Assembly (NCBI GenBank): GCA_002633005.1
Contig: NMRA01000269.1
Coordinates: 186,001-250,000, forward strand
Length of the DNA stretch: 64,000 bases
DNA from: Phoronis australis
Lineage: Eukaryota; Animalia; Phoronida
Direction: 5' to 3'
A model generated the notes under the pieces. The model was not told the origin of the DNA and ran no database searches. It worked only from the letters and a program-made list of their open reading frames with translations. Both the position numbers and the translations under genes were made by a program. Within the stretch, counting starts at the first letter, position 1. Every line of letters begins with the position of its first letter. Shown here piece after piece: positions 29,601-53,196 of this stretch.

Positions 29601-30023
29601 TCACTGCAGTTTCTAACACTTCTATCGTCATTGTTAACGTTAATTCCAAATGGCATTTGCTAGTCAGGTACCTTCTTTTGAAAGAATGCTTATCATAACC
29701 AGGAAGTCAAACCATTGCTTACAACGCAGGTCTAACACTGGTACAATATCAAAAACTACAAAAGGGAATATGTGAAGTTTAAGTAAATCGTGTCCGCTGT
29801 TGTGTTTGATGTACGGGCAATTGTAATTTACAGTTGCAGCCGTGCTTTCAATTTGCCATAGTTGCTAAGGTTACACAGATCAAGCATCACTATTGGCTTA
29901 TCTGATCGTTGTAATCCTAACTGCACTTGTGTAAACAAGGTCAGATCCGGTCTGGGGAGCCAACTGACAGTTGTAGACATTGGCCCCATAGTGGTGATTC
30001 ATTCTCAGCTCGACTTCTGAAAG

Positions 30024-30411
30024 ATGATGCTGGAGCGATATGGTCTTTGCCTTTGCCTCTGGTTGCTGCATTGTGGCGTTTGTGCGCAACGTCGTGGTCT
30101 CCAATGTTCCGACGCCGACGGAAGGCCGCAGCGATGTTTCCCGCCTTTCGTGAACGCCGGCTTCTTGGTGCAGTCTGTCGAAGCCACGAACACGTGCGGT
30201 GCGCACGGACGACAGGAATACTGCGATATGGACGGTAGCTTCAATAGGGACTGCGGCCGCGTTTGCGATGAAACCGCGGGCGATGTTCAAGTCACGGGTC
30301 ATTCTGCTTCCTTAGCTGTGGACGGTATGCCAGACACCTGGTGGCAATCAGAGTCGCTATATGATGGCAATCTAAGCTATCCCAATACAGTTAACCTGAC
30401 TATTCATCTCG
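30024..30411 (+). CDS. Laminin-gamma-like exon 1 (signal peptide + start of LN domain)
   Basis: [28 protein letters not shown]...[12 protein letters not shown], donor gtgag. Confidence 0.92.
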
Positions 30412-33400
30412 GTGAGTTTGTTGAGCAAGATCTGACTTTTCGGCTAATATCATGTCGATGAATTTTAATTTGTTAAATACTTGCTTATACAAATAATAAA
30501 TGCTAATAGTGGACGCAGTCAAATACCTTTAGGGTCACTGTTCAGCAAAAAATAAATACCTGGGTCCTATTTTACAAGCAAGCCAATAGCCATACAGAAT
30601 ACCTACTAATTTCCGACAGGAAACAACGTTATATAGGGTTCTGTTCCCTGACCAGGTGGCACCAAATTTAATCATGAGCTCACTGCATATTACGTCAGCA
30701 TGCAGACAAGATGGTTGTGGAAATACGCTGACTGAGTGTCTCATTGACTGGCACTAGTTTGCATACAATGAGTCTAGGGGACGATTCAAAAACATTTACT
30801 AGAATAAAATAGAACATTCGGATTTTAGTGGCGTTATTTAATGGCGGATTTCTATCTTTTAGGAGTATGAATATTTGTGATGGTCACGTGAATGAAACAG
30901 AGGGTGTCCAGATCCTTTATAATCACGACCCAAAGGAAAGTAAATACTAAATTTGACTTAGTCAAACATTTGCCCCGCTCCGTGGTTCCAAATTTTAATT
31001 TCTCTCTATCGCTACCACTTCCCCCGCCCCCCGCAACGGCCGTCGTCAATGACCCTGCCCTATTATACAGATGTGCTGGTTTTGCTGTTTGGTATGCAGA
31101 CCTCGATGAAGTAGTCACCAAGAACCTAGGTACCCGTATTTCAATAAAATTTCACGAGAAAGGGTCTCTCTTCGTTACGCCCGGTAGGCGCTTAGGGTAT
31201 TATTTTGACCTTTAGGGTGCCAAAAAGATGTACTTCCCAAATAAGAGACTCCGAGTCCTATCGCGGGCTGCAAAATCTGGCGAAACATAGGGAAAGATAG
31301 CACCACTATTTCGCAGTTGAGAAAAAGGATCATTGTCCCGGAAACTTCCATTTAGATTCATTTTCTAGGATCCAGACTGGGGCATAGCTCACTTTATTAG
31401 GGCCACGCTTTGAAAGTTTACTTTGACAGAATGAAGTCCAAGGGTCCCTAATGTACTGTCTTACGGGCTGTCTTGTTGAAACGGCAAATGATATAGAACT
31501 GACGGAAAATCTTCAACCAACGTCAAAATTTGCCAAAACACCAATTTCTCAGACGGTTATGTCAGATCGGCTACAATCATCCTGTAGAGGTCGGTCGGCT
31601 ACTTGGTTTCACCAGTACGAGGAATACGCTGGATGCATGTTCAGATCTTCAAGGTAATTTTCATGGAATAAATGAAAATATCTGCCACGGATCTGAACTA
31701 AACGTTAAAGACAGACTTCTCTTTGCATTCACAATTCAAGAACACGTACAGGACAGATGTGTTTCGTCAGTCGAAAAATGTGACTAAAATCTAAATATTT
31801 CACATTTATTCGATCATTTTTGTGTTTGCCTTATTTTACTATTAATTTCTAATTATTTTTTAATTTTAAAAATTGTTTCCGCGATAAGCTCACTACATAT
31901 GGCGGCAGTTAATAAGTATCCATAATGAGTCACTAACACGGCCATTTTAGGCTGTGGTGCACCACCAAAAATAAAAATAAAAATTCATATTCAATTCATT
32001 AAATTTTAGTGAAAATATTTGGAATTGCGTTGGATGAGCATTATGTGGGCTTAAGTTTTTGATGAATTAGCTTGCGTTCAAATCCGTGTTATGAAGTTTT
32101 TAATGAGTATGAAAGCCATTGTAAGTCGCCAAAGTCCCTCGATCTCGGATAAAACCGGCTTAGATTATTTTACTTCAAATACATGTATGCCTTCTAGTAA
32201 TTGCACCACACTCTGTTATGTCCGTTCTAAAACAGCAATTAAGAGAGATATTTTGATACTTCCAGGTATTACTAGCTCTGTAATGTTAAACATATTTCAA
32301 ATAAAAAATCAGACTAGAGGTGGAAGCAAACAGTCATGCTTGGCGTTCACGACAGCGGATAAAAGTACATCGTCCGCAGTGTAGTGTGCAACATTTTATA
32401 GTGATAATGACCACCAGGGGTCCGTGCTGCACACCAGCTAGATATACGGAACATTATCAAAAGACGATGATGCTGGCCAGCAAACATTTTTCATGCTGTG
32501 TTGGCTGTAGATAACAAAGGAAACCAATCGAGCAACACGGATGTGTTTACAAATTCAATATTTTAATGTTGATGAACCTCTTGGAAATCAGCAAGAGACT
32601 CGCTTGCCTCATTAAAATGAGTTTACAGAAATGAGCATCAGCTCAGAAGCGCACCCACTAACTCTGCAATGGCATACACATTTTCAAACCTGTCAGTTCT
32701 GAACATGTATATTTCAACACTTTTGCGCTCTATCGACTCGTCTGGCGCGGTAATCTAATTCCGTAACGGGTTAAGATGAATGTTCGCGTCACGATGTAGC
32801 GCGACCAAGATTGGTAGGTCACAGAGTCCAGGAATGGATTGATTAGTTAGCTGGCTCACATTCCTACTTAAAAGGAAAATATTATTCAGAAACTGACCGA
32901 AGCAGTGGAATCCGTTACTGTGGCTATACTTTGCTGACATATAGTCGTGAGGAAGTTAACATAAATTATGCAACGTGGAATGACCACAAAGAACCTTGTG
33001 ACTGAGTGCGACTGACCTGTTAACGATGTGATGAGCGGACAAGTTCAGAAACTGCTTTCAACCTGCTGTTGGCATTTCCTTTTTGAGTGAACAATAAAAG
33101 CTGATATGCCCTGATAAATATCCAACTATAAAAGGTTTGCACTCGACATTAATTGTCATTGCCAGTGTTAAGTGTTAGTTTATTGTCGTTGATTTGACAG
33201 TTTTGGAATGACTCAGTGATTTGGGTCTCTACTGATCATTTCGCCCAGGGGCACTGAACTCACTTCACAAGGATGGACCAATTAAGATGTTGGTGCTTGG
33301 TTTAATAATTAAATGATAGGAATGCAGAAGTTGAAAATAACGGAATACTCAAACGCATTCCATTCAGCTCGCAATCAAACGGGAAGCTAAAACATAAACA

Positions 33401-36400
33401 CTTTCCCTACGCCACGCCCTTGTAACAAAAATGTTACATAGTAGACTTTTCATGCCTTAGCCTCGCCCCCTAACGTTAATGTCGAGAACCAGCTAGCATT
33501 CACACTGGAGAAATAAAACGTAGGATTGACTTTCACTGGTTCACTGTATCTTGAAACCGAGAGTGTGCGCTTTCGGAGGGCCATAAATCTTTCACTTCAA
33601 GCTAAGATAAAACGACTTTTAGATGGTTTTTAACACATCAAAAATAAAATCCAGTGAACTGCAACCAGATCTCGTTAGTACGATACAAGATTTTAGGCAC
33701 GCCGTGTATCACATTTATATTAAAATGATACGTATGTTTTATTTTCCCCTGGTTAGGTCGTAGTGGAAACTTTTTATTTATATGCACGTGCTCTTTTTTA
33801 GGAAAGTCTTATGTCATCACTTACATTGAAATAAACTTCCGCCAATTTGCTCCGGAGAGTTTTGCAATTTACAAACGAACACACTCGGACAGTCAATGGA
33901 TTCCATACCAGTACTACAGCGGCAATTGTGAGACAATTTATGGAGTGGCGGCCAACGGTGTTCCAGCGTCTGAGATGGACGCCACCTGCTCGGACCAGTA
34001 CAGCGACATTTTCGCAGGGCTCAATGCACGGGTTGTATTTAGTACCCTTGAAAACCGACCGGGAAGAAGAAATCACCAAGACAACATGCAGATTCAGGTA
34101 CACCCCATGTTGTTCTGTCTTTAAAATGTACGCAACGCATGGAATACTGCAGATGTAAAATATTTTGGGGTTAGCGAGACATTACGAGTTATTTAAGTAT
34201 TCTTTTAGGAATTGACCAAAGGGTGGGAAGCGAAATTGCATAATTTCAATATCCAACAATTTACATGTGCGCGAACTTATTCGAAGTTGGGCGTGGTGAG
34301 TTTTGTTGTATGTTATCTGCGTGCAAGAAGAAACTCGAGACTAGGCACACTGAATGTCAACCTGATTAAGATCCTCAAATGTGGGTTCCAAGTTCCTGTC
34401 GATCCCCAAGTAAGGCCACCTCTAGTTTCTACTGAAAACGTGCATCCACTTGCATGAATGTGTTGAGTTCTAGAATTTCTGCTGGTCACGTCAACTCATA
34501 TCGTGCGCTACATCGCTTCTGATAGGCAACTCCCATTGCTATGAGTAGCTACTGTAATTTTCTTCGTTGGACGCAACAACTGTTAAATGTAACGTTTTTA
34601 ATAGTTTTAGTCAAACTAGAAGCAAGAACTGGTAAACAAAAATGACGCTAGAGTGCAGCATGAAAACGACGTTTCGATACTAGGCAAACATCATCCTCAG
34701 GTACACTCAAACAGAATGAAACAGAATACCGTAACATAATGCTCACTTAGCATCACAATGCATGATACAAAATCTGTCAACTAAAAATTGTTTTGCTTAA
34801 CTATTGAGGATGATATTTTCCTAATATCGAAAAGTCATTTTCATGTGACACTCGAGCGTCGTTTTCGTAACGGTTTGAATGTTCAAATTTTTGGCCAGTA
34901 GCTGTTACACCAATTTTCGGCCTTTCCCCGAGTCTGTGAATACTTATTTTCAGACCTACTACTTGGCTATTAATAGCTACATGTAGCTTCGTTGAGGAAT
35001 CTAGAATATTCAGGAAAGAGGCAATCACAATTTTCGGAGGAAAAATGTTCGCGCTACTTCAAAATTGACATGCTGGCGGCTTTTTCGTTACATTTTTTGT
35101 TGGGTCGGGTCCGGAGGGATATGGCTGGTCTCTTGCCCTCCTCTTTAAATTTGCTTTTGATGGAGTGATGCCCTGTAAGTACTACAGTCTGGCCTACTTT
35201 CTATTAATACAGGAATGGATCACGGCTACGGACATTCGAATAGTTATGAGCAGGTTGTCGACACTCGGTGACGAGGCGTTTGGTGAAACAGATGTACTGA
35301 GGTCTTACTTTTACGCCATTAGTCACATCGCAATAGGTGGCAGGTAAGTGGAAAACTCTTTTGCGAACTCCCAGGGAAAGTCCCGGGAATAGGCTCCCAC
35401 AGAGGCCATGAAGAGACGTGCTGCTAAGTCAAGTTATATCGGTTCTCCTTTTGGAAATCGTTGTTAGATGGGTAGGTCCACTGTTACTTTGGTAACAAAA
35501 GAGGTGACTACGCGAAAGTGCTATGTTTCGTTTTTCATCAGTGGCATGTCTCGGATACTCATTTTTCCGGCTGTCGTTGACAAGGCATTGTGGTGAGTTT
35601 GCGGTGGCAAATGCCTTCACGTTAGGTGGAAGAAAACTTTATTTGGTGGTGGTAGGGGCGGATCCAGGATTTTGAGTTAGGGGGGAGGGCAGAGTATTAG
35701 CCAAGATTTTGCCGTCAGACATTCGTTCCCCGAACTGCCAAATGGAATCTGGGTGAATTTTAGGGGGGCATGGCCCCCTTGCCCTTTCCCCCAAATCCGC
35801 CATTGCTATTGGTCATTTTCTGTAAAAAGAAAATTCGAAATCTGTGAAAGATCAATTCATCGATATTCACCACAACTAATAACAAAGAAATACTGCTCTA
35901 TCAAACATAAACCACTCCCCACGAAACACTCCCATTTTTTGTATACGGCAGGCTTATGTGAAAAACTGGAGAGTGTAGACACGTTCCGAAGCCACTTTTC
36001 GAACTAGAAAGTAATAAACGAGATCGTAAATCAGAGTGTGTACATTATACAGTGGTCCAAAAGTTATGTACGGTGGCCTAAGCGGGAAATCGTAATGCGT
36101 GGACGGCGACTAAAAGGCGACTTCGGCTGTTCTGATCTAAGTGATTGCGACGGTTGTCGGAAATCCGCGGCAGCTTTATAGTCCACCATCGTACACTGAT
36201 TACAGTAATTTTGCTGACATCTTTAGCTTTCCCACTGATATTTTGTCGTTCAGTTTTGTACTGGCCTACGCTGTAGTCTTCCACGGGTGAGATTCTCACC
36301 AGGAAACATATTTTCGTTAGTAGTAACCTCAGCCCAAAATTATTTAACCAAACTAGGTCGTGGTGGGATTCTTCTCTCAAAAAGTGACAATGTTCCGTGG

Positions 36401-39400
36401 CAGATACTACTGTTCCGTTTCGCATACAGTAAGCCCACCCCCGGGTCAAGCCTGCTCAGAGTCATGCAGGGCAAGCAATGAACTACCAGTTCTTCCAGAA
36501 TCTCTAGCCGAACTGGGTAAATCTAGCCTGTGTAAGGAACGAGTTAAGACCTGGGTAGAATCTCGCTAAAGAAGCTAATATGACCACGTGCTTTAGTTCA
36601 TGTGTAATACGTGGCGATTTGTCACGACGTTTCGTGTGTACTTGCGTTTTCGCGAGACTCTCGCCCCTACGAAACGCACGCCAAGAAAGTGGTCTAATCA
36701 AAAGCTATATTTGACAGAGGGCTGTGAGCACAGGCGCTTGAGTTTATCTGTTCCCCGATCACCACTGACGTCACTCAAGTTTCTTGTATATGGTTATGAG
36801 TCATCGGGAAATTCGAGTGTCTGTGGCTCTGAGCAGCTTCAATGGAATACCACAGACTTTACTCAAATTAATCGATTACATTTCCGATCCTTTGGCAGGT
36901 GTCAGTGCAACGGACACGCTAAAAACTGTTCCAGCAGCGACAAGTCAGGAGAGGGACCAATTTGTCAATGCGAACACAACACAGCGGGAAAGGACTGTGA
37001 TCGATGTATGCCGTTCTTCAATGAAAAGCCCTGGACTCCCGCAACGTCGGCAAACCCTAACGAGTGTCTCCGTAAGTTCGTTTACACACTGACGGAAGGT
37101 GTAGTAGATTAAAGATCCATTTCGTCGTGCTTAGCATTAGGCGTTTACCTCGTCAAATCGGCCTGACTCATAATTTCTTTACCGTAGCATGACTACTTCT
37201 TTTGTCAACGAGAACATCGAAGCTATCAACGAAGTATTCAAGAAAAGGCTTCAAAGTTTATTTGTGTTGGCCTATGCCTTGGATTTGCGAAGTCCACAAA
37301 TTACTCAAGTATTGCTTGTGATTTGAGGTGGTAACGAAAATGGAATCTTTTCACAGGAAGGAATGTGAGACTGATTTTATCAGAGTAAATGACCAAATTC
37401 AGTTTTCGATGTTTTTTCACAAGCTAACTAGGGCGAAATGCAACTTAACGCAACTTGGATTAAAACAGGGCTGCGTTCCGCAAGGGCAATTTCTGGCAAG
37501 TTCAAAGGGATCGCGCAAGTCTTCGCAAGATACCGCCATGCATCAAGCGAAGCAACTGGTCTCGTTAGATATAATTTGTCAGATCTTGCGTTATCGAAAT
37601 TGCCCTCAAGAACAACTGACGATATTGGGTATGCGAGAAGAACATTTCATCGAAATGTTTTGTATGACAATACTAAGCCAGCCAAAAACACCTGATCTAT
37701 CTTACTATTTTGAAGGGATTGAGGAGTAATCTTTCAACTGCGATTCATATCCCTATTTACTACTTGCACGAATTCGCCATTATGCTTGAGAAAGAGGTGT
37801 TTTGTCCAAACTACAAAGGTTCTGCATGTTTGCAACACGCCCGCTTTCACGACGTTACACTGTTTCACAGTGCTACGAAAGGTTTAACATCATTTCTCAT
37901 TGGTTAAAGTAATGAAACCGACGTCATAACATTCAGTCATTCTCATTGGTTGAAACCTGGGAAACCCCTTTCAGTTTCCTGCCAGGTAGTATGGCGACCA
38001 CCTGTGACTTGAACAGTAGCGATTGATTAAAACGGACACAGTGATCGACGTAAACAAAATCATGGAAATCCCGATCTAATGGTACAATGCATGGAAGGCG
38101 TGTGCAAGTGGTGGATGTGATATGCGCATTGATGCCCACACACGGAATTCTTTGTGTCGTTCATCATGTTTCCACAGGGCCACTTTTCACTATAGGTGGC
38201 ACTGTGTCAGAGGGTAGCTTTCACGTTTGCGTTGTAAAAATTGATGCTAAAGCGAGGCACTGTGTCCTAAACAACAATGCACAACAATCATTTTTGTAGC
38301 ACCACCAAAGTGTGCAAGTAGTGAATGTTAATCAAAGTATTTTACAATATAATTTTGTTACAGCCTGTGACTGCAATGGCCTAGCAGACAATTGTTACTT
38401 CGACATGACTCTTTACAATGCCACTGGACATGGCGGTCATTGTGAAAACTGCCGGAACAATACAGACGGCCCTCGGTGTGGGAAGTGCAGAGCAGGATAC
38501 TGCCGAGACAAAGTGTCTGGGAATTGCGTCTTGTGCAAAGGTGAGTGCGAAGCGGTCTTTACTGCGAAGTAGCCTACGGCACACGACGGGTCGTACACGG
38601 TGTCTGTAAGTTCGAATGACAATAGCTGTAGAACTGCGCTCGATTGGTGTAAATGAGTGGAACGGCAACGGGTGGTTTCTGTGTGACGCGATAGTATTTA
38701 GATACGAAAATCTGTCCTCACTGCGCTACCGTTCTGACACATGCCCTTAGATTATGGTCGATAATCCGAGGTGTTTCTCCACAGTGGGCCCAGAGATATA
38801 TTCTCGACTGATGCAATGTGTGCAGTGCCTTAAAACTATTTTATTAGCTGTAGGATTGATACACTAATTTAATATGTACACTGAATACTCCGATGTGGCC
38901 ATGTGTGTCGCTTGTGACTGTCATTCACATATGTTCCTCAAGTTTGCTTGTTCGCGTCAGATTCTATTAAAGAAAAGAAAATGTTTGCGAGCGAGGGTCA
39001 ATTTTGTTTAATGTTGTGACTTAGGTGAATTCCTGAGCATAGGCATCCAGCTGATTGATGCCTGTCATATGTTTTTGTATCTCGACGCAAGCTTTTTCCC
39101 TCGTTTGTTCTCGGTAAATCGTTGAGTGCCCAAACTCATCGAAAATCATCTTTGATCTGCTTCCATTGAATGTTTGTGGGATTAACCATATGGAGGACGA
39201 TATTTGTGTTTAGTTTACATTTTCCCGCGGCCTGATTGGCTGGAATTAATAGCTTGATTGACAAGTCGGAACTATCCATTGATCCAAAAGCTGTTTTCGT
39301 TGAACGACTGTTTCCTGCGATGACTTTTTAAAGCGCAAAACTAAATTGAGGGTACCTTTAGCTCGCTAACAACTAGTCCTAAGCATCACGGTTTGTCTCA

Positions 39401-39561
39401 ATAGTTTCTAATTTCCAGTGTCTTCCGGCAAGTACAACTCGACACTTGAGGTAGAAGAAGTCAAGGAAAATGGAAAGCGGAATGGACAGGTCGCGGCAAG
39501 ACTCCATCTGGGGCTGTTGGTGACAGTGCTGACATCTATTGGGCTGTTATACAAGCGCTAA
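30024..39561 (+). CDS. Laminin-gamma/netrin-family protein: signal peptide + LN + 2 LE + hydrophobic C-terminal anchor, 6 exons, 435 aa
   Basis: Exons 30024-30411, 33802-34097, 35213-35343, 36899-37071, 38364-38540, 39419-39561 (1308 nt, GT-AG, phases 1,0,2,1,1). Motifs [66 protein letters not shown] and TGHGGHC. AATAAA at 39653-39658. The last exon is less certain than the first five. Confidence 0.85.
33802..34097 (+). CDS. Laminin-gamma-like exon 2 (LN)
   Basis: [47 protein letters not shown]...[20 protein letters not shown]. This frame is absent from the ORF track. Confidence 0.93.
34663..34705 (-). ncRNA. Minimal type I hammerhead ribozyme-like motif (Penelope-type)
   Basis: Minus strand TGTAC-CTGAGGA-T-GATG(tttgcctag)TATC-GAAAC-GTC-GT. 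Stem I is weak. An inverted degenerate copy lies at 34804-34864. Confidence 0.5.
35213..35343 (+). CDS. Laminin-gamma-like exon 3 (end of LN)
   Basis: [44 protein letters not shown]. Confidence 0.94.
35653..35805 (+). mobile_element. MITE family B, copy 3
   Basis: TAGGGGCGGATCCAGGATTTTGAG...CAAATCCGCCATTG. Confidence 0.8.
36899..37071 (+). CDS. Laminin-gamma-like exon 4 (LE1)
   Basis: [10 protein letters not shown]...[36 protein letters not shown], 8 Cys. Confidence 0.94.
37934..38120 (+). repeat. Dispersed repeat family C, copy 1
   Basis: CATTGGTTGAAA.CTGGGAAACCC, AGTATGGCGACCACCT.TGACTTGAA, CAGTGATCGA.GTAAACAAAA and GTGCAAGTGGTGG are shared with 41530-41736. Confidence 0.75.
38364..38540 (+). 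CDS. Laminin-gamma-like exon 5 (LE2)
   Basis: [58 protein letters not shown], donor gtgagt. Confidence 0.93.
39419..39561 (+). CDS. Laminin-gamma-like predicted terminal exon 6 (spacer + hydrophobic tail)
   Basis: tttctaatttccag| phase 1: [47 protein letters not shown]. Poly(A) signal about 90 nt downstream. Confidence 0.68.
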
Positions 39562-41529
39562 GGAATTGGGCTCCTGGCAACTGAATGAGGTGTGCCTCCG
39601 TAAACCTCCATTTCTGCTTTAGATACCAATGGTTTCTCAAAACGACTGAGAAAATAAACCTTATGGTAATTAATTAGTATCTAGACAATGACATTGTTCT
39701 CTCTAGCCGTGACTGTAAAAGAGTTCAGCTGTTCTAAATAATATATAAATGGAAACTCGTAAGAGTTCTTATAAGCCACCAGGTTTCCTGTTGGGCAACA
39801 TGAAAACATTGTCGAAAGCGAGGCAGTACTTTTTACCCTGTTACTGTGATTGAATGTTGCACGTGGTCTATTAGGAATTGGGTGTTTTGCTTTGGCAATT
39901 CCAGAAATTTTGAGCCCCGTTTCACAAATCTTAGTTTTAATCTTAAGTCTTAAGCAAGTTCCGTTGATGGTATCATGGGTTATAGACAACAGATTCGCAA
40001 CTCCGACATTTTCTTGCATACTATCCTAGAGGATGCGCCACTCTCCGGTTAGTGCATTGCGACAACGAAAAATATTCGGCATTGAAACGCTGTTCAAAGT
40101 CTTCCAATAGTAAAATTGTTGGTATCGTGAGTACATTTAGCAATGCTATTACCACCCGACCACACAACATCCGACCATGATTAGCAGACGACGTACTTGC
40201 CGTAAATAATACTCGATAAGGTGTCACTAGTGAATAATGACATAACGGCTTGTGCGTAAGAAGACGGAAAGTATACGGAGTCGGCGGTCTATGATAGTAT
40301 GTTAACACCTTTGTTCAACACTTGTAATGTAAGGCGCTATGCCAGTGCCATGAGATGAAAATTGGACAGTGCTGTTCAATATCTGTATTTAGTAATTTGC
40401 TACAATGTTATGTTAGGCTGATGTTGACTGACTACGCCGATTCTGCCTGGTAAATCGGCTGAAAACATCGATCTAATTGGTGTGTTGTAAGCCCGAAGTC
40501 GTTATCGAGACCCAATCAGATCCCTTTCAGTAGCCGATTGACCCGACGCAGTCAATCAACTGTAGCCATGGTGACCATGCAAAGCGCAGAGTATCTTCTC
40601 ACATGCATGGTTTGTAACTATAGATTGTTAAAGTGATGACAAAACAGGTTGATTTTGCATACTTCCATTGCTGTGCACCGCAAGTGCGCTTTTTATCGCA
40701 GTTTATCTGTTGACCACCAGGCGTCACTTGTGCTAAACGGAGTTTTCATTCTTCTGCACATGGAAGTTTTACTCTAGTCCTCAGTGTCTGACCTGTTGCT
40801 AATTTAAGAAAAACAAAGTAGATGCGAAAGCTAAATCGATGTGTGTTATGACTCATTCAGTACGAGTATAATATGCAGAAAATTATGAGTTGTTACTGAA
40901 CTTACCTGAGATATGAAAGGGCAACGTTGATCGCCACGCTGGCCGGGTTCCCTGTGTCGTTGGCTGTTGAGGTGAAAGAGACACGCAGAAATCATTCAGC
41001 AGCACATGTTTTATCACTGATTGATGTAACCTTGGCAGGCATTGGTTAGCTTTACAACAAAGAAAAAAATGGCGGACTGTGAACGATTTTTAACCTTGTC
41101 AACATCCTCACGAACCAAGTTTTCTCTCTGCAGCAAATGTTTCGTTTCTGCAGTAATGTTTAATAACCCCGTGCTTCGTTGAAGCACAATGCACACTGAT
41201 CTGGCCGATTTAACTGGTGAGTTATTCATACTGTGTGAATACAAGACAGCAACGGCAAAAATCATTGACAGTAGAAAAATGCACACCTACACACAGACAC
41301 ACAACTTTCTGAGTCACACATACAGAACACTCCCAATGAACCACCGATTTGTTTGAACAGAGCAAAAACTATACCCACATTTACACTTCTTCAGTCATGC
41401 CAGTTTGTACCTGCTGACAATTCGTTCAGTCAATCAGAAACGTCGGTGTGTGGGGAAAAATTTCGCATTGCAATGATGTCGAATGTTGTTTAACATTGGC
41501 TTAAGTTATGAAGCCAACGTAATAGCTTT

Positions 41530-41736
41530 CAGCCATTCCCATTGGTTGAAATCTGGGAAACCCATTTCAACGGTTGAGTTACCGAGTATGGCGACCACCT
41601 TTGACTTGAATAGTTGTATTTTATTAAAACGGGCAGTGATCGAAGTAAACAAAAGCAAGGGACACCCGCCGATCCGGTGGCATAAGCCTAAACATGCACA
41701 GTACATAAAGGCCGCGTGCAAGTGGTGGCGATGTGA
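41530..41736 (+). repeat. Dispersed repeat family C, copy 2
   Basis: Colinear similarity to 37934-38120. Confidence 0.75.
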
Positions 41737-44522
41737 GTCGGAAGTATACCGATTTTTCAATGAACACTAAAATCTGTCACACTAAGATACTTTAAGGAAC
41801 AGATGAATAATGCTTAGTATTGAAAAGGACTGTTGGGTTAGTCCTGAAAGGGACTGTTTGGTTGAGTCAAGATATTAAACAAAATTCACAAAAATCGCAA
41901 CAGGTCTATCAACGTCGGAGGCTGACGGTAAGTGACATGACTGCCTAAAAGCAGCGCTAGCTGTTAGCGAAGCGGGGTGTTTCATACAGCGCCACCTGGT
42001 TGCGGCAAAGCCTTGAGTGAGTGGGTACCTTTTGCGCTTTCATTCAGGGCCCAGAAATGGAACTTATAGCATTTAAGCAAAGTTTTGTTACAACGAACAG
42101 ATTTCCGATAGGTGTCACTGTCGCAAAGAGGTGGACCGTCCCAAGACCGTAATGAGCTTGATCAGTACCAGTATAGCTACAGTAAAGGGTATCTTTTACG
42201 AATTACGCTTTCTTCGGCTTACGAAAAGACAATCCGCCAAAATCATTCTCTATGAGCTATAAAAGCAACATGAGAAACCCAATTCGGTGTAACACGGGAA
42301 GAAAGCTTCACTTCGACTGGGAATGAAAAGACCGCCGGAAACAACTGGAGGTTATGAGCGCTCAGCATCAGTTGGGGGAGGTGAGGGTGGGCACAAGATA
42401 CATATATAGTGGCACAGCACAGGTTAGAATCATTCGAAAACATGCATGTGTCACTGTTGCCTGGATTGAAACAATTTGACCAAATTTATGAAATTTCACC
42501 GAAGAACTCAAGTTATAGAAACCACAACGGGGCCAGCAGTAGTCAAATCATAAAAATAGACGCCCACCATTATCATTGTCATTTGCAAAAAAATAATGAA
42601 GCACCTTGATGGGGTTCACGAGTTACAACTGCCGAATTTCCGTAATCAAGAACGAGATGGTAAGTTCTTTCCACCCGGGCTAGTTGGAAACGAACAAAAA
42701 GCCCAATGTTTTACGGTTTCCTAGTCATACAGAAAGCTGACAAGAAAATGTTATTTGAAATCACCAGCATCCCACGAATTGGCCCCCAAAGCATCTCATA
42801 AATGACTAAACACAAAAATGGGAAAAATTTACCACATTTTGCTCTCCAGTTTAGGTGGAAAAACTCTTTAAACGTGAAAAGACTGTCTTCTGATAGAGAG
42901 GTTCAATTTTAACAAAAATATTATTAAAAAATTTTCTCTACCTTTCATTTGCACCGTTTAAAACTGCTTTACTTACTTTACCTATGTGAACCAAAAATGT
43001 GCTTTTTGGGCCAAAATGTTGATGATGCTCTTTAGAAATATTGGCCCGAATAATTTCAAATAAAAGTTTTGAAAAAAATTCACCAGGCTCGTTCCAGCTC
43101 TCCGAGCCCCCCCCCCCGGTGCGCGCATATAACTCATAAAGTCCTTTACTATTGTACAAAGAAGTTTATTTTCGAACAATTAGAATTTGCAAATGAAAGA
43201 CAAATTAATAAATAAGTAGATGATAATAAATTAAGAAAATTCAGAGGAAGCGATCAAAATTCGCGCTGGCATTTCCACAAGTACACATTGCGTCTTTTTA
43301 AACTTTGAATAAAGCAAAATCTGCTGCATTTTGTGCTTGCACTATCGACAAGGAAACATAACTTCAGGTAAATGATGTGGAACTCAATTCCATCGTTCGA
43401 CATAGTTTGCCAAAGAGCCGTAAACCGGTCGTTATTTTACGACATTGACCAATTTATAAAACAGTTAGGTATTATTTTTTTTATTTCAAATAGCAGACTG
43501 TTAAGTTAAGAAACTAATGTCCTTGCATTGAACTTTTGTTATTATGGCGCTTAATAATAGCGCGCAACATCAAATTTCGCAGGTACGTCATACTAAACAG
43601 CAGGCCAACACAAGCGTAGACTTCTTTCAAACAGGAAATTTGAATTTAACAAAAAACAAACGTCTGGTCTTAAATAACTCATATCACCTAAACTTATTTC
43701 ACAATCCTAAGAACATGACATAAGCGCCGTCTAGTGGAATGCAGCGGTGCAATTGTGATCTTGAAATTCGCGCGCTTTTGAGATGGTCAAGTTGCGTATT
43801 CTTATATTTGAGCTGAAACAGTTCAAAACTAAATCGGTGATTCTTAATTTTCATTTTTTCTTACGTCTAATTAAACACGAAGGACATCAAAATAAAACAT
43901 TAAAGAAAATAATTTAAGGATATAGCTCTGCGAAATATAAATAAAGCCGTTAAAACATAAATCTGCGCAAAGCCGATTCAAAAATATGTCTTCAATTTAA
44001 TTGGAGGTGGCTTTTCAGTAACCCATGTAAATTTCGTATTTTTCCAAGAAGCACCCCTGTTTAGGCAGCTGTAAAAGAAAATAAATAATTCGGTGGTCCC
44101 ACTTTGTTTTGCAGATTTGTACCTGGCCAGGACCAAAAACAAAAACAAAATACCGACCATAAATCCAAACTGCGTTTAACCTCCTTAAAAAATAGTGACG
44201 TATAATTTAAAACATGAGTAGTATATACATATTTACAATACTCTGTAGTCTTAGTCTTGCCACTGAGGAAACCTTCATTATGTCAATGGCCATGGAAAAG
44301 GCGTGACATGACATTTAAAAACAATGACAGTAGATCGGCATTGTCACAAACGTACTCTTCCACAGTTTCCACGTGAAACCATGGTAAAACTAGGTTGCTA
44401 TCCCGCCATCTATCCGGGAACCAGCCAGCATTGTCCAAGCGCACCAGGTTCTCCGCATCGCTCGTGTTGGAAAAAGTTACTATTTTAGCTTAACTTGGTA
44501 TTCGGTAAGACGATTGTCAGTG

Positions 44523-44683
44523 CTAAAATAGTGCACTTCCTATTGTGGACTTCATCTCAGAACTGTTGAATGCCGACGCTGAATTTGAGAGCACACTCGA
44601 GTAGGGTCCGGGTAAAGAGGGTGCTGAGGACAATGAACCAGTCGACTTGGTTGTACTTTCGTTTGTTGATTGCACCTTATTGC
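44523..44683 (-). CDS. Phox2: Phox2 exon 4 (C-terminus)
   Basis: ttttttcag| phase 1, ...[29 protein letters not shown]. Confidence 0.85.
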
Positions 44684-47600
44684 CTGAAAAAAGCAAACCC
44701 TCATTTGCAGTGTACATATAATTGATTATATTCACACGACGTCTTCTACTATGAAAGGTAAAACACTGATTGGAAAGAGAATCCCTGCGAGTAAGACGCG
44801 ACTGCCAAGTACACAAATTCAACATCTACCAACGACGCCGTACTTGCGGTTTAGTGAAAACGCACATCACTTACCTAGGACTCTTTAAGATTTATAATAT
44901 TAGTAATAGTAAAAGGAACAGTAATAATAATAATTAAAATTATTAATATTTGTCACAATTGTTATTATTATGTTAATAATAGTAACAATAGTAATAATGA
45001 TAATTATAGTTGTTGTTATCATTATCATTGTTATTATTATTATTGTTATTTTGTTATATAATCATATATGGCAGCAATGACAATAGCAATAATCTTAATA
45101 AAAATTAATTATTATTATAGTAATAATGAAAACACTAGTAACAGTAATAATAGTAACAACAGCAGTAATAATAGCAATAATAACAATAACAATAATAATA
45201 ATGATGATAATGATAATAATAATAACAGTAATAATAGTAATAGTAATAATAATAATGACGGCGCGACACGATATCGTGGTAAAATTTCCAAAGGTTAAAA
45301 TATAATTCAAAAACGTGTATTGTCTAGAACTTACTAGTGTTTTCTTTGGCAGGTTTTGATTCCTTCATACTCTCTGTTTTCACCGAGGAGTTACTGTTGT
45401 TACTGCTTTGTGGTGTTTGAGTTTTGGCTCTTTCAACCTTCCTGAACTTTGCACGTCGGTTTTGAAACCACACCTGGAATCAGAACAATAGAATCCTACA
45501 GCTATCATTACGTCAAGCGGCGTGTACTCTCGCAGACAATTCATAACAAAAGTGTAAATCTTGTATACGCTCCATAACAGCGACCTCATTTTAGAGGCAT
45601 TATGGATAGGGTAAGTTTTCTACAATACCGAAAACAGGCTATGCGGAAATAAAAACTTCCGCCAAGATAGTGCAACGAGTAATAATACCTTTCACGGATT
45701 TTAGCCGTTTCTGTTGTAGTCAATATCCATCTTTATAACTTCAATAAATTCCAAAAAGTGTGACTTCATCTAAGATAACTCCATCATGTATTTTTCATCC
45801 TAAAAGTTCTTCCAGGTTAGCCAATGCCTCCCCTTCTTGTTACCAAGGTTACATCTACTACATAGCCTTTGTGTTTATCTTGGCATTACGTTCAAGTATT
45901 CTCCATAAGATTTGCATATATTCTGCGGCGAAGTCGTTCTAATTACGCACACAAAGTCTACAAGAACGTCGCCCATAGCACGTGCAACTACTGTCTCTAC
46001 CAAGTGAGAAAGGAAAGGGGCATTTCTACTCAAGTTTAATGAATGAAAAATATTATGGAGCTGGTAGTTATGAAAATTTCTTAATGCTATTCATAAATAA
46101 CTTGAAGCTGAGATTAAATTAGTGAAACCTCTAGGGGTTTGCTCACTTGGTACCAATGAAAATCGATACAATTTAGCAATGCAAGGAACTTAAACTCTGT
46201 ATTTGGTAATGGGCAATTTTGGAAGATCGTGAACAAATATCTTAGACATCTCTCTTCTCAATCTCAAAACCAGATAAAACTGTTGATTAAAAACGACTAG
46301 TGACTTTAAAGCTAAAAATCATAGCATCGTACTTAATGTTTGTACCAAAGATCCATGTAATTATATTTTTTGAACTTTGAATCACGTAATGACGGGTGCT
46401 CGTGTATGTTAATGAGCTGTCATTATTGTTGATTCTGCTGCAAAGATAATATTTCTAATAATTATTTTGTAATCAGAACTGAACTTCCAAGATATACAGT
46501 CTCCCGTTATCTTGTGAGCACTAAGTTTTATTACATGTTGATTTCGCTGCGCTGATAATTTCTACTCGACGCGCTTCTTAGTTCCGCGGTGAATTCTATT
46601 CTTTTCCCGATTCGTCAACAAGCGCTCTAACAACTAGTTTTCTTCACCGATGTCTAAACTATAAAAATGTGCAGCGCTTCCACAGTTGGTTTACCTCGTA
46701 AATTTAAATGATCCACCCAATAAAACTCCAATAAATGCATGTGCTTGTAACATAATAGACCAAGTGTAATAAATCCAAATTAATGTTTCAATGACCCGCC
46801 CTAAAACAAAATATGGTCTTCCATTCCTTTCTGTGTAAAAAATAACCATAAGTTATGGTTCCTAGGTCCAATGTGCATATCCATAAATACTAATAAAAGA
46901 CAGGACATAAAAGAGAATAAAAAGTTAGCGGGAGCATAAAGCATACAAAGTCGATGCTCTGACAGATGGTACGACCGATATACCTCGTGGTCATTTTTAC
47001 TCCAATTCAGGAGCCCACTCCTTTAATTACTCCGTAATTGTTAAACATAAGCGAGAGTAACTCGTTCGACAAAAGACAGAACCAATTAGAGCTCTATCAA
47101 CAAGACATTTTGCTGTAAAATATGCTCGATTTTGTTATTAATGGCTCGAAAGATTTTTTATTAAGAAAGTTCGTTTTGGACACCTCCCATTTTCTGACAA
47201 ATGTCTTGCTTTACAAATTTTCGGTATGGCTGGTTGAGCTGTTAAGCAATACGCGACTAGCGTGTCACGCGATAACACGTTACTGATTACATGCCAGTGT
47301 TATTTGCATACATATACATGTTAACAGGGGCTCTATTCATGAATTGGAATGTATCATTTTAATAATAAAATCCAATTAGCATTACTGTAATTGAACTATT
47401 GATACTTTTAAGTCCAACTAAAGTGTAAGTTGTTCTTGTAAATGATTCAGCGTTGCAGCGAAGGCCCAATCAGTGTTCTCGCGAGACTACACGGGCATTC
47501 ATTCGTGAAATGTTCTTCGCGCCCTAGTCTTCTGGTATGGTATTCACGAAGGACTAATCTCGCGAAACTGACCAGACAGTATACACGTGACAACTCCGCT

Positions 47601-50600
47601 GCAAGCAATATCACCTACGCAATCATTACTCGTGAAATGGAATTCAAGGTTTTTGCTGTCATCCTTCGTTGCGTGAAAGCTCATTTTCTGTTGCATGTGC
47701 CCTAAGATTATGTTACAAATTATCCTTTTAAATGCTATTCAAATCCCCTCATCACTTCCACGTATCTGCCTAATAACGTCTCGATTTTCTAGTCAAATGA
47801 GTTCCGATTGACATGTAAACATGGCAAAACATTGGAGCGTAGTCTTTCCAAATGCTTACAATTTTTAAATTCCCGAAAAGATTGTGTGTCAGTTGTTTGT
47901 GTTTTTTTTCACAGGATTCAGTCTGAAACGCCCAAGCAATGACAACTAAACCATGTAGAGTTTCAAAACCTAACACCTTGCTTGCAACTGGGTACATAAG
48001 TAGTGGAGACAAAAAGCGATGTTTTATGTGCAGTAGGAATAAACGACATTTTCAGATGCAGTCCGATGCCAGCAAAGTTATACAGCCCACAGTCTCATAC
48101 TCAGCATGTATATATATATACATTATATATAGTACCTACTCGCAGATCTGTCTTCAATTTGTACCTGAAGACGATATTTGAAACATGTCGAAACGTCGTA
48201 TTGTCGTAACGCAGATCCTCAATTTTCCTTTTCTGTATAGCCATACTCTAACCATTTATGGAAGCTAATATTCCAAACGTGTTTGGCAAGGGGTTAAGGG
48301 AATACGTGTATCATTCGTGTTTGTATTCAGTACTTAACCCAGAGAACTATTTCCTTAAAATAACGAAATGGTTTCTCAAATCATTTTCCGAAGCGTCGCT
48401 GTTAGAAAAAAAATTACCTGAACCCTGGCTTCTGTAAGATCTATTTTCATGGCTATTTCTTCTCGCGTGTAAATATCTGGATAATGCGTCTCGGAAAAAG
48501 CTCTCTCGAGTTCTTTGAGTTGCGCACTGGTGAATGTAGTTCTGATGCGCCGTTGCTTTCGCTTCTCGGGGTTAATAGACGGATCATGATGATGGGTGGC
48601 GTGGGGATACATTTTATAGGGTAGTCCTGAAATAACACATTTATATTGTTTAACACAGGAAATCTTTCCATTATCTATCCAGAATGCCCAAGGTGTATAC
48701 TATGATTGGCCTAAATTGACGCAGGCGTTAACAGTTATAATATGCACTGAAAAGGAAATCATAAGTGTATCATTTATGAGAAGTATAAATTGCCTGATGC
48801 TGTTCTATCAAAAGGATTTAAAATCTATTTTTCTATTAATCAATTCGTTTGATCTAATTGGTTAATTAATTGACTAAATGAATAATAACTAAAGAACAAA
48901 AATAACGTATACTTATCATGTGCCTTTATTCACTTAAAAATCCCTGAGGTAAACAGACGCACGTGCAAGTCACGTGGAGACAAAGTGTCGGCACGTGGCT
49001 TTCACCTCAGGTGAGTTTGACATGCGTCGGCAACGTTCCGATACTCTGAGTGATCCGATAATGGCTACCCTTTTGAGGTATTAATTCCATGGATTTTTGG
49101 ATGATAATTGTGATAAATTACAAAGTTCAATAATGAAAACCGACGCAAGAACGGAACCAAGCGATTTTTGCAACAACCAGCCTGTAAGTTTACATTTGAA
49201 TTTGAACTCGGGTTATCAAGATTCGTCCAAGTAAGAGGGCTAGTAGACTCGCCTGTTATGACTGCCACGTTTACATTCAGTTTGCAAGAGTCCGTTGGTA
49301 CTAGTGAGCACGCGTTTGTTGCCGCGAACACGACGACACTTTAATATTCAAGTACGTATCTGCATAAATTTTCATTTGATGGAGTTAAACGTTGCATATC
49401 GATGAGAAAAATCAAAAACTAAAGTTGGTTTGACTTTGTCCCTTACAACGGAAAATGACATCGGGTAGGAGCTGTCTATTTTCTATCTCAAAAATCATAA
49501 TCTAACAAAATGATGCTAAATAACTCCAGACTATTTACAGAAATGTCTGTCGGCTGCATGCAGTTTTTATCCAGCGGATTCAACAGCGATAATGATTTAA
49601 ATGTACAAGTGACGTAGCTAATGTCTGTAAATGATGTTCGTTGCACAAAGTGAAACGATCGAGGTCATAAAACGCCTGCTGAGTCTCACAGATGTCTTAT
49701 AATGACTATGAAAAATTCATTGCTCATTTTGTTTTATGATTTCATGAAAGCAAAACAACTGTTTTAACGAGCGACCATCAATCTCGGTCTATCTGTCGGA
49801 AAGATTGCAGGGAGTGCGGCTAGGCGAAGATGATGGTATCTTATTTAATTAAACTTAAAATTAGCATAATAAAACCTGATAAGTACAAAACATTTATAAC
49901 AATCCGATAAAAGGATAATGATCACTTTTTTAGAAAAATTAATGAGCTACAATGTTTTGGTGTATCAATTTTCACGACGTAGATAATTTATCGTGTCGGT
50001 TCTGTTCAACTGCACCCGGATGCAGCCTTAACAAAGAATCTTTGCAGAAAATTTGCTTCTTCATATTTTTAGCAAAATTTAGTTATTAGTATCTTTTTTC
50101 GCGATGTGCCCCTAAGCCAAGATATCAGTCATGTTTATCGTATCGGGAACTGAAACAAATACGCATCTAGATTGCCGACAACTATTTGTACGCGGGCCCT
50201 AAAGACGCTTAGAATTTCTTTTAATTGTTCAACACTGCCCACTTCATTTAAATATCACTCGAAACCTATTATCAAAAATTCAAAGTGCTCTTAAAATGCA
50301 CAGTATCTCTCCTGATGTCAGAGAGCTGAAATCGGATACAAAAGTGAACATATTGGGTACATAAACTCGGAGCGCCCATTACGATAAATGCAGTCCGCCC
50401 GGGGTAGCCGTGTATTGTTTATCAAACGCATTGACCATATGCGCGCTTAATCGAGACGATTTGAGGGCTTTTATCCTCGTTTCATCCAACACCTTCGTCC
50501 TTCAAATTACGGTTTATCTTCACACTAAACCGCGTGTACCCATATGTGATGAACAGAGTTTAACAATAGCCGCTTTTTATTGTCTTTCTCTGACAGGCTC

Positions 50601-52965
50601 ATAATTTCTGATTTCTTGTCGCGGGCAAAGGCTTAATCGTAGCATTTGGAACTTTGTCGAAGCAGTTTGCTTGTCATTTCATGAAACAATTTGCTGTCGC
50701 AGCAATTTGACCTATTTTACTAACTTACTCTAGTTTGATATCATTATGCACCCATACAACCAATCGCCACAAATAATAGTGTAGTGCATATTTTACATGG
50801 AATTAGCAGCGTGTCTGTACACTTATAAGGAATTTTCTGTTGACACAAGATTTTATGCTTCAAGAAAATTGTAGTTTGATTAAGGCTGAGAAACTTCAAA
50901 ACGATTTCCTTGAAATGTTTGCTTAGATATTTTGTACTTTCTATGTATTAAAAGTGTGTTATGTGGGGCTTCGCCTGTTCCTCGTAATAATTTAAACCTA
51001 TCTCCGTGCTAACTAACAAGTTCTCAAAATGGATAGATTAGAAATCATAAACATTTCAGTATCAACACACGGAATATACCTGTCTTATTAATTAACCTGA
51101 TTTCTATTAAGCCTTAAAATTATTTTGATAAGATCGCCTTCAATATTTACTGTCATTTTATTTACCCTAAATTTGAACATCATCGAATAAAAGAAAAAAC
51201 TAGTCGCATTCTCTTACAGCCAAATTATAGGGATCGCCAACATGAGAACAAATTATGAGAGCAACTTTTTTGTTGAAAAATGCAATGCGAGGCGTTAGGC
51301 TAGTGCTAGAAGACGTGAAGGGATTGACATCGAATTTTGCGACAGGATATAGCGAAACAAACTGGTGTCTCTTTCATTACATCGTCAAGAAGAAAAAGGT
51401 ATAACACGTTCCTGAAACTTAACAATAGAACGATAATTTGACGAGAATAAGTGAATTGTTGCATCGTTCCGTTGAGGGTTGTAGATATAAAAATCAAAAT
51501 TCACACTTCGATGAACATTCTGTCATTGTGTGTACAGAAAATGATGAATAAATACTTGAAAAATAAATCTATAAACTTTTAACTAAATCTCCAGTTCTTA
51601 GGAATTCAAACCGAAAAACTAAACGCAAATGGCTTAACACTAAAACTTGTCACCTGAATATCATGAAATAACCAATTCAGTGCTCTCACAGAACAGTATA
51701 AGCTGTACAGAAGAACTATACTTCTTGAATGTTTATGAAAATCTATGAAAGACAAAAATGATAACGAGTGTGTAAGCTTCATTATTTTCAACCAAGCAAA
51801 GACAAGGAACAAGGAACATATATCATTTAAATTCTTAATTTTACCAGGTCGTTTTAACGCCATCAGAATTAAAACTTAACTTTATTATTGAAACGATGTG
51901 TGTGTGAACCATAGAAAAAAGACACAGTACTTAGAAATGTGTGGTAAAAATTAAGAATGTTGCATTTTTAAATCCATAACAAAAGCCAACTCGAAGGCAT
52001 AACGCAAATTATCCAAGGAAGTCGACGATGTGCAGATGTGTGTCTGTTTTATGTCAATATGCTAAAACCGGAATGACTAATGAATGATCTAACCAGAAAA
52101 TAAATAAAAATCTCCCTTAAAAACAAGTATTCAGTTCTACAAAGCGCACTGTAAACAGTAGTACAAAAGAACTATATGTCACAGCTAGGAATTTTGTAAA
52201 CCCTCGTTTGTATACCGTCTTATTACATCTTGGCAGATCGTGTTATGTAATTCAATTAATTTGTCAATTTCACAAATAAACAAAGATAAAATACATGTAC
52301 GTAAAGTAATAGCAAAAAGATGCTTGGTGCACATTAATGTCAGTAATGAAATGAAACAGGGAACAGACACGCTAGAAAATTAAATTTCCAACGGATAACT
52401 ATCGGATAATTGTGTAGTAAACGATAGGAGGCGAAATGATTTACACGAACGTTGATTCAATTGTTTTAAGTTTTCTCAACTTTATTGAGTTTATCCTCCG
52501 TTATCATATATTTCCAGTCGACTAAGAAATTATCTAAAACGAAGCTGAATCATTTAGTAATCCAATTTTGAATATCTAATGGCTATATGCTCGACAGTAT
52601 TAACTTGGTTACGGACCGGGTTAAAGTGATTTCACCCTAGGAAATTTCATTTACTTGTTAATGAAACAAAACCGCTCACAAAGTCACTTACCGGCAGTGA
52701 AGACGGACGCCTGGTGTCCGTGTGGGTCACGTCGGGGGTGCAGCATGGTCATGTTGCCCGGGGGTGGCAGGGCCGGACCGGCTCCGGTGAAACTACGGAC
52801 TGGATTATATCTGTAAGCCTGTGACATGGAAACTTGTCCGCATGGGCCAAGATCACTGTATCCCGTACACGGAATACTGCAGCTCGCCAAAGAACCCACC
52901 CCGTCCATTCCACCGAGTGCACAACTGTCGAAAGCCGTCGTTTGATTCAGGTAAGAATAATCCAT
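44523..52965 (-). CDS. Phox2: Paired-like homeobox 2 (Q50 PRD-class homeodomain), 4 exons, 260 aa
   Basis: Exons 52965-52692, 48626-48418, 45473-45335, 44683-44523 (783 nt). N-terminus MDYSYLNQ...YRYNPVR and homeodomain [49 protein letters not shown]|[12 protein letters not shown] are diagnostic of Phox2. Confidence 0.96.
44900..45258. repeat. Compound (AAT)n/(ATT)n microsatellite in Phox2 intron 3
   Basis: Imperfect trinucleotide tracts in both orientations. Confidence 0.9.
45335..45473 (-). CDS. Phox2: Phox2 exon 3 (homeodomain helix 3)
   Basis: [46 protein letters not shown], donor gtaagt. Confidence 0.94.
48155..48203 (+). ncRNA. Minimal type I hammerhead ribozyme motif (Penelope-type), antisense within Phox2 intron 2
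   Basis: GTAC-CTGAAGA-C-GATAT(ttgaaac)ATGTC-GAAAC-GTC-GTAT: intact core, 5-bp stem II, 4-bp stem I, palindromic loopless stem III, GUC cleavage triplet. Confidence 0.62.
48418..48626 (-). CDS. Phox2: Phox2 exon 2 (homeodomain helices 1-2)
   Basis: [31 protein letters not shown]...EARVQ; the intron sits at the canonical PRD-class Q|V position. Confidence 0.96.
52692..52965 (-). CDS. Phox2: Phox2 exon 1
   Basis: AAAAATG start context, [21 protein letters not shown]..., donor gtaagt at 52691. Confidence 0.94.
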
Positions 52966-53196
52966 TTTTGTAAAAAAATAAAGTCAAAGAAGCGAAAGCA
53001 AATGTTCACAAAACAACGACAGGAAATTACAAAAGAATTACTGAGACAAAGACGCGAATTTTACGATTTTTTCACAATGTTTCCCAAAACTAAGATTTGA
53101 TTGTAGATAAGCGAACGCATAAATGAGTTTCCTGTATCGCCGGAGATGTTTAAGTTCACGGAATATTTCGGACAGTCCAACTGAAGCTCTCGATAC

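Follow-up and report, generated by a model that had tools for sequence, protein, structure and literature searches.

A short laminin gamma derivative with a predicted membrane anchor in Phoronis australis, a candidate counterpart of netrin-G

Does the phoronid Phoronis australis possess a surface-anchored protein of netrin-G design, and from which laminin-related family would it have been built? The question is raised by a gene located in a 64,000-nucleotide stretch of contig NMRA01000269.1 (assembly GCA_002633005.1, positions 186,001 to 250,000 of the forward strand), called the window below; coordinates are counted from its first nucleotide. The gene is composed of six exons separated by five GT-AG introns, and its open frame encodes 435 amino acids (AA): a likely signal peptide (assigned by eye and hydropathy; an in-frame stop lies just 5' of the ATG), one LN domain, the two laminin-type EGF domains LE1 and LE2, and a hydrophobic end (Table 1). 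The matches to the Pfam Laminin_N profile in exons 1-3 cover positions 1-88, 90-189 and 191-233 of 233. A first-pass annotation made from the letters alone had described this in-phase LN-LE1-LE2 model, which is borne out by the splice sites, the open frame, the Pfam matches and, for four of the five junctions, RNA. What is established here is how the gene is spliced, that its sequence and introns are gamma-like, which residues have changed, and that LE3, L4, coiled coil and NTR domains are missing. The wider reading is more tentative, its chances being a little short of even: an expressed laminin gamma tip, anchored to the cell surface, likely by glycosylphosphatidylinositol (GPI), and acting like netrin-G as a ligand for a likely non-laminin partner.

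RNA evidence was obtained by mapping three raw RNA-seq runs (X2-X4, approximately 18-19% of each) on positions 29700-44800, together with a contig set (X1) that carries the same species label as the runs and was taken as RNA by guess. Reads span the junctions of exon 1 to 33802 (28 reads), exon 3 to 36899 (29) and exon 4 to 38364 (39). The junction between exon 5 and the tail exon (38540 to 39419), predicted in the first-pass annotation, is carried by 63 reads from the three runs (10, 9 and 44). At these junctions (1, 3, 4 and 5) the first mate always maps to the minus strand, consistent with RNA from the plus strand, and each is also present in an X1 contig. Junction 2 (34097 to 35213) is not among the 15 of 48 junction rows listed; it is a predicted junction between covered exons. 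Read depth reaches 82 at 38490 in exon 5 and 70 at 39426 in exon 6, compared with 63 junction reads, which indicates that joining exon 5 to the tail exon gives the main product; a minor isoform of another kind may occur beside it. X4 is about 4-5 times deeper than X2 or X3 at similar read amounts. Plus-strand reads extend to about 41.25 kb, approximately 1.6 kb beyond the AATAAA at 39653, while one X1 contig extends to 39889 and another spans 40156-40882. This AATAAA is therefore read through and does not represent the main 3' end, contrary to the polyadenylation near 39670 that had been anticipated.

A tblastn search of the whole window with 10 proteins, among them three netrins as well as two gamma chains of full length, returned nothing better than E 0.37 outside exons 1-5. 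No exon encoding LE3, L4, a coiled coil or NTR was detected in the window, including the 25 kb downstream, in agreement with the earlier description of the interval up to the next gene; exons of a long form may lie further away, beyond the window. The transcribed gene is almost certainly a real short derivative of laminin gamma. The reads also contain variants at 38490 (Arg372Lys), 39426 (silent) and 39430 (Lys393Glu, in the tail linker). Short interspersed repeats are abundant in the introns and the 3' untranslated region (UTR) (35650-35780, 36730-36780, 37790-38330, 39980-40160 and 41030-41700), and one repeat element is common to about 37.9-38.1 kb and 41.5-41.7 kb.

The comparison of single exons with solved structures (PDB) points to laminin gamma. 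Exon 1 scores 68 bits with gamma-1 and at most 32 bits with netrins, and has no netrin-G match at E<=10. The scores of exon 2 are 87 bits (gamma-1), 53 (netrin-1), 29 (beta-1) and 16 (netrin-G). Exon 3 reaches 55 bits with gamma-1 versus 40, with no match to netrin-G1/G2 at E<=0.1, and exon 5 reaches 59 bits with gamma-1, 42 with netrin-4 and 31 with netrin-1. On these four exons gamma-1 is well ahead of netrin-G1/G2 and beta-1, and identity to vertebrate gamma-1 over LN-LE2 is 51%. At 21 columns 44 gamma-like sequences can be told apart from 12 netrins; the Phoronis protein shows the gamma state in 15 of these, the netrin state in 3 and neither in 3. Hidden Markov model scores are 460 bits for the gamma and 301 bits for the netrin profile, the two profiles being unequal in depth. 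The protein carries Trp at a position occupied by Cys in all 12 netrins, has loops of gamma-type length and lacks the basic LE2 motif present in 12/12 netrins.

The intron positions add to this resemblance. Introns 1-4 are placed as in the gamma locus L035, and intron 1 occupies a common gamma position: 114 of the 131 exon-1 relatives with the flanking motif lose their match right past it (a few are mis-anchored), and an acceptor is found there in 36 of 48 scorable loci, many of them from near-duplicate hosts. The earlier statement that the residues are laminin gamma-like rather than netrin-like is thus upheld by the exon scores, the diagnostic columns and the introns. In gamma loci L010 and L034/L035 the phase-1 donor after LE2 sits 12 nucleotides further 3', past the second Cys of LE3. 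(In L034/L035 the intron after LE2 seems to use a GC donor, near L035:13345.) Exon 5 lacks this second Cys, and a new one, Cys376, replaces an aromatic residue of 39/44 gamma-like rows. Exon 5 thus has an even number of Cys (10), and the last Cys of the protein is Cys387; judging from the sequence, Cys376 likely pairs with this stranded residue. Three trees were built, a quick one from 62 rows minus 3 that were too short and two from hand-picked sets of 25 and 31 rows. In all of them the netrins form a fully supported clade (100/100 in the 31-row tree) that excludes the Phoronis protein, which falls on a long branch among gamma sequences.

The tail encoded by exon 6 is polar between residues 389 and 412 (mean hydropathy -1.39) and hydrophobic between 413 and 432 (+1.83), and ends in Lys-Arg. 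Among 583 acceptor-like sites in the window (91 with at least 35 AA), no other combines a polar linker with a hydrophobic end, under a rule fixed only after the tail had been seen. Neither a Pfam domain in exon 6 nor an Atlas match of at least 0.9 to the tail was found. Some GPI proteins end in basic residues. GPI signals are reportedly marginally hydrophobic (a 2012 article by Galian et al., going by its title). According to PMC10491789, the GPI pattern consists of a small omega residue, a residue other than Pro at omega+1, a small residue at omega+2, a spacer of 8-12 residues and 15-20 hydrophobic residues. The N-terminal signal, the polar linker and a hydrophobic end of 15-20 residues, as seen by hydropathy, conform to this layout. 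N406 has a fitting spacer with Lys at omega+2, and N410 has Gln at omega+2. The GPI signal proposed earlier remains a candidate: its linker and hydrophobic end conform, but its omega sites, N410 and G411, lack a small omega+2. GPI and transmembrane (TM) predictions are easily mixed up according to PMC10084454. From its sequence the protein is probably membrane-attached, with about an even chance of a GPI anchor and half that chance of a single-pass helix.

The residues of the LN domain are numbered below as in human gamma-1, with Y147 serving as the anchor of the alignment. D108, T116 and S278, which bind calcium, are retained, in a calcium loop shorter by 3 residues and with His for D279, and the site likely still stabilises the LN fold. 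Y147, D211, D261, F264 and the LN glycan site are also kept. R149 is replaced by Glu, which is found in 0/44 gamma-like rows; S213 is replaced by Phe, and P214, invariant in the 44 gamma-like and 12 netrin rows, by Ala. On the beta face the Pro-Leu-Thr-Gly-Gly loop after S213 is lost and the 79-88 loop remodelled. S213 belongs to the beta-binding face, and its change to Arg is described as disrupting the laminin trimer and abolishing netrin-4 binding (PMC9852560, PMC12328585, PMC11260871). R149E is itself an engineered change at the alpha face (PMC9852560, PMC12328585). Netrin-G is described as binding NGLs via the top of its LN domain (PMC3409155), and the basic LE2 motif of netrins as the site for heparin, UNC5 and DCC (PMC10871540). 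Given R149E, S213F, the changed proline and the missing basic LE2 patch, the protein is likelier to be a ligand for some new partner than to cap laminin, and we regard a new partner as somewhat more probable than laminin. The tethering or capping of laminin polymers suggested in the first-pass annotation loses weight, both faces being changed at residues whose mutation matters in gamma-1, although the enrichment is not significant.

Searches for relatives covered exon 2 against longer proteins (3 matches of 18 candidates), a Diadema gamma region against short proteins (the best 120 of 2363), exon 1 against 1.84 billion representatives (the best 150 of 237, top identity 51-54%), a scaffolded profile (the best 120 of 2116) and metagenome contigs (49 loci). 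Short gamma-like proteins devoid of a tail were found in oysters (P0049, P0062 and P0041; 375, 387 and 414 AA), two of which stop right after LE2 and one of which falls in a cluster of 71 members that includes RefSeq and Logan entries. Others occur in nemerteans (P0026 and P0028; 430 and 447 AA), in Styela (P0276; models of 438-457 AA) and as an Owenia model (P0038). In the oyster proteins S213 is replaced by Phe, Phe and Tyr, and R149 by Asn, Thr and Asp. Each of these positions is changed in 5/7 short rows and in 7/37 other rows; with three of the seven from oysters, the rows lack independence, and faulty gene models may be among them. The grouping of short forms with the Phoronis protein is weak (88/80, among long branches). 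A single clade of all short forms is unsupported in the 31-row tree (3 changes; 0% of bootstrap trees), and no row has more than 12 of 85 derived sites in common with the Phoronis protein. The tail-less proteins possibly constitute an overlooked, repeatedly evolved secreted class. Several candidates were set aside: the short mite protein P0030 with a hydrophobic end, of which an alternative model (P0373) continues differently; Styela P0372 (LN-LE-kringle-TM), which looks like a gene-model fusion, the newer models having 438-457 AA; and short Rhopilema and Patella entries, fragments whose clusters contain members of 1616-1624 AA.

Among known systems, netrin-G1/G2 (laminets) are similar in their signal peptide, LN domain, few LE domains, absence of NTR and C-terminal membrane attachment, the GPI anchor being shown in netrin-G and predicted in Phoronis. 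However, netrin-G is described as a chordate protein of beta/gamma-like origin with three LE domains and a unique Cys-rich domain (PMC3516229, PMC10084454), whereas the Phoronis protein resembles gamma, and its two LE domains are followed by a linker free of Cys. The closest sequence is laminin gamma-1, with common intron positions, calcium ligands and LN glycan site, but this chain has approximately 1600 AA; the Phoronis protein lacks LE3 onward, L4 and the coiled coil, and has the polymer-face changes and the hydrophobic tail. Netrin-1/UNC-6 also originated from a gamma short arm but is secreted and possesses LE3, NTR and a basic LE2 patch, all absent here. Netrin-4 and LaNt alpha31 are likewise short LN-LE proteins, able to compete in laminin nodes; they are beta- and alpha-derived, respectively, and both are secreted. 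LaNt arises by splicing and has the same LN domain as its parent, whereas the Phoronis protein appears to come from a separate, diverged gene; exons of a long form are absent from the next 25 kb, and most reads take the tail exon. The oyster, nemertean and Styela proteins are gamma-derived LN-LE proteins too, but without the hydrophobic tail. Netrin-1, netrin-4 and netrin-G are regarded as having originated separately, the first from gamma, the second from beta and the third from beta/gamma-like laminins, the third being reported only in chordates (PMC3516229, PMC10084454, PMC9788559; Fahey and Degnan 2012 as cited there). The literature searched yielded no description of a short gamma-derived protein with a membrane anchor, although subscription journals or supplements (for example the sequence lists of PMC3516229) may contain one; the available part of a review of the echinoderm matrix makes no mention of such a protein (PMC10381214).

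Several observations weigh against an anchored gamma derivative with a new partner. Exon 4 (LE1) scores best with netrin-1 (65 and 60 bits), ahead of alpha-5 (59) and gamma-1 (58), the branch of the Phoronis protein is long (1.2-1.3), and approximately unbiased (AU) tests do not reject its grouping with netrins (p 0.256; p 0.352). The best trees place the protein outside the netrin clade, without excluding a netrin grouping by AU test. Descent from netrin-1/UNC-6, with LE3 and NTR discarded and an anchor acquired, would agree with the LE1 scores and the AU tests; it is nevertheless very improbable, given four of five exons clearly better with gamma-1, the 15 gamma versus 3 netrin columns, the gamma-type loops, Trp for the netrin Cys and the absent basic LE2 motif. 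Even less probable is an ancient netrin-G orthologue or a derivative of laminin beta/gamma-like chains, which would imply no convergence. The overall plan is that of netrin-G, and the trees were built without beta/gamma-like laminins and amphioxus netrin-G, which leaves this explanation some room. Set against it are 28-33 bits for netrin-G1/G2 on LE1, 16 versus 87 bits for gamma-1 on exon 2, no match on exons 1 and 3 at the thresholds given above, and the 51% identity to vertebrate gamma-1; netrin-G itself is placed inside the beta/gamma-like laminins (PMC3516229). The protein is, as had been supposed, not netrin-G-like in sequence, and, if anchored, would likely be an independent copy of the chordate netrin-G design. 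No orthologue was found in proteins, with the profile or in metagenome contigs, where nothing is closer than ordinary gamma chains; a diverged orthologue could lie beyond the best 120 matches considered.

Other objections concern the anchor and the partner. Every omega candidate between 395 and 419 has an omega+2 residue other than Gly, Ala or Ser, which makes GPI less likely although the pattern is loose, and the C-terminus is Lys-Arg. The working form could thus be soluble, either because the tail fails as an anchor or because cleavage at Lys408-Arg409 releases LN-LE1-LE2, giving a secreted protein that resembles the short oyster ones. The imperfect GPI pattern, a marginal helix containing His, Thr, Ser and Gly, the tail-less oyster proteins of 375-387 AA that end right after LE2, and a Gly-Lys-Arg site directly before the hydrophobic stretch (a possible convertase site), which could permit shedding, are consistent with this. 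We nevertheless consider it unlikely in view of a separate exon of 47 codons in which a polar part gives way cleanly to a hydrophobic one, found at one of 583 acceptor-like sites; membrane attachment would, moreover, have to precede shedding. Somewhat less unlikely is a surface-anchored laminin modulator, in which the gamma-type LN domain would still bind one of the laminin chains, so that the polymer is capped, softened or tethered at the cell surface, much as by netrin-4 acting from the beta side. Interface sites, in a list drawn from examples in the main text of papers, are not enriched in changes (Fisher p 0.29-0.45 at four thresholds), and at the 90% threshold 0/10 are changed. Y147, D211, D261, F264 and the residues that bind calcium are retained, no text was found in the available parts of the papers stating that R149E itself blocks polymerisation (one places it at the alpha face), and netrin-4 is described as acting by retaining one face and losing the other (PMC9788559). 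Both faces are hit here, however, the beta face by S213F, the lost Pro-Leu-Thr-Gly-Gly loop and the altered 79-88 loop, and the alpha face by R149E.

The neighbouring genes are listed in Table 1. The convergent neighbour had been described as Phox2, and its best match is indeed PHOX2B (87.6 bits; aristaless 82.1), with a deduced stop about 5 kb from the gene. Weak opposite-strand X4 reads at 43.3-44.8 kb may correspond to its 3' UTR. On the other side lies a gene that matches TPR weakly and whose last exon, of 711 codons, is rich in Ser, Arg and Lys; it probably extends beyond the limits given, and we take it to resemble TTC14.

Table 1. Position, content and support of the features described in the window
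Feature	Position	Strand	Content	Support
Exon 1	30024..30411	+	Predicted signal peptide (about AA 1-21), start of LN	Pfam Laminin_N 1-88
Exon 2	33802..34097	+	LN core, with R149E and remodelled S213-G218 loop (human gamma-1 numbering)	
Exon 3	35213..35343	+	End of LN; D261, F264 and S278 kept, D279 replaced by His	
Exon 4	36899..37071	+	LE1	Pfam EGF_laminin
Exon 5	38364..38540	+	Gamma-type LE2 and first Cys of LE3	Pfam EGF_laminin
Exon 6, coding part	39419..39561	+	Polar linker of 24 AA including Gly-Lys-Arg site, 17-21 hydrophobic residues, Lys-Arg end	
Exon 6, reading of the tail			Predicted GPI signal or marginal TM helix	63 junction reads, hydropathy
3' UTR	39562..~41250	+	Contains repeats	Strand-specific depth and X1 contigs
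Phox2-like homeobox gene	44523-52983	-	About four exons: ~52.7-52.9, 48.4-48.6, 45.3-45.5 and 44.5-44.7 kb	
Gene with weak TPR match	10633-16132 and likely beyond	-	711-codon last exon	
LINE-type reverse transcriptase fragments	1527-2629	-		RVT_1, zf-RVT

For the anchored gamma derivative with a new partner, the following succession is proposed. The 5' part of a laminin gamma gene would have been duplicated, and the duplicate would have lost 12 nucleotides before the ancestral phase-1 donor, and with them the second Cys of LE3, and gained a new terminal tail exon. The hydrophobic end, likely as a GPI signal, would fix the LN-LE1-LE2 tip on the outside of the cell. The beta- and alpha-binding loops would have drifted, and the anchored protein would serve as an adhesion or guidance ligand for a likely non-laminin partner, as netrin-G does. 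Of the initial idea that a gamma 5' end captured a terminal exon, the expressed gamma-like gene ending in a new exon is confirmed, and the duplication itself is presumed; a separate full-length gamma gene is expected from the need for one. A broader view, possible but on the doubtful side, is that the gamma tip was freed repeatedly (oysters, nemerteans, ascidian, Phoronis), giving an unrecognised class that sheds polymer residues, to which Phoronis would have added a GPI anchor and its own receptor. This would constitute a fourth, independent route from laminins to netrin-type proteins and a gamma-derived functional twin of netrin-G.

The weight of these considerations is that of one species and a predicted anchor. 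The oyster tail-less proteins, filed as 'laminin gamma-1-like', suggest that the step is common and overlooked. If the proposed reading is true, the Phoronis gene would represent a further origin of netrin-type proteins beyond the three published and a convergent netrin-G design, and would allow the LN loops responsible for a switch from laminin polymerisation to receptor binding to be sought in a natural example.

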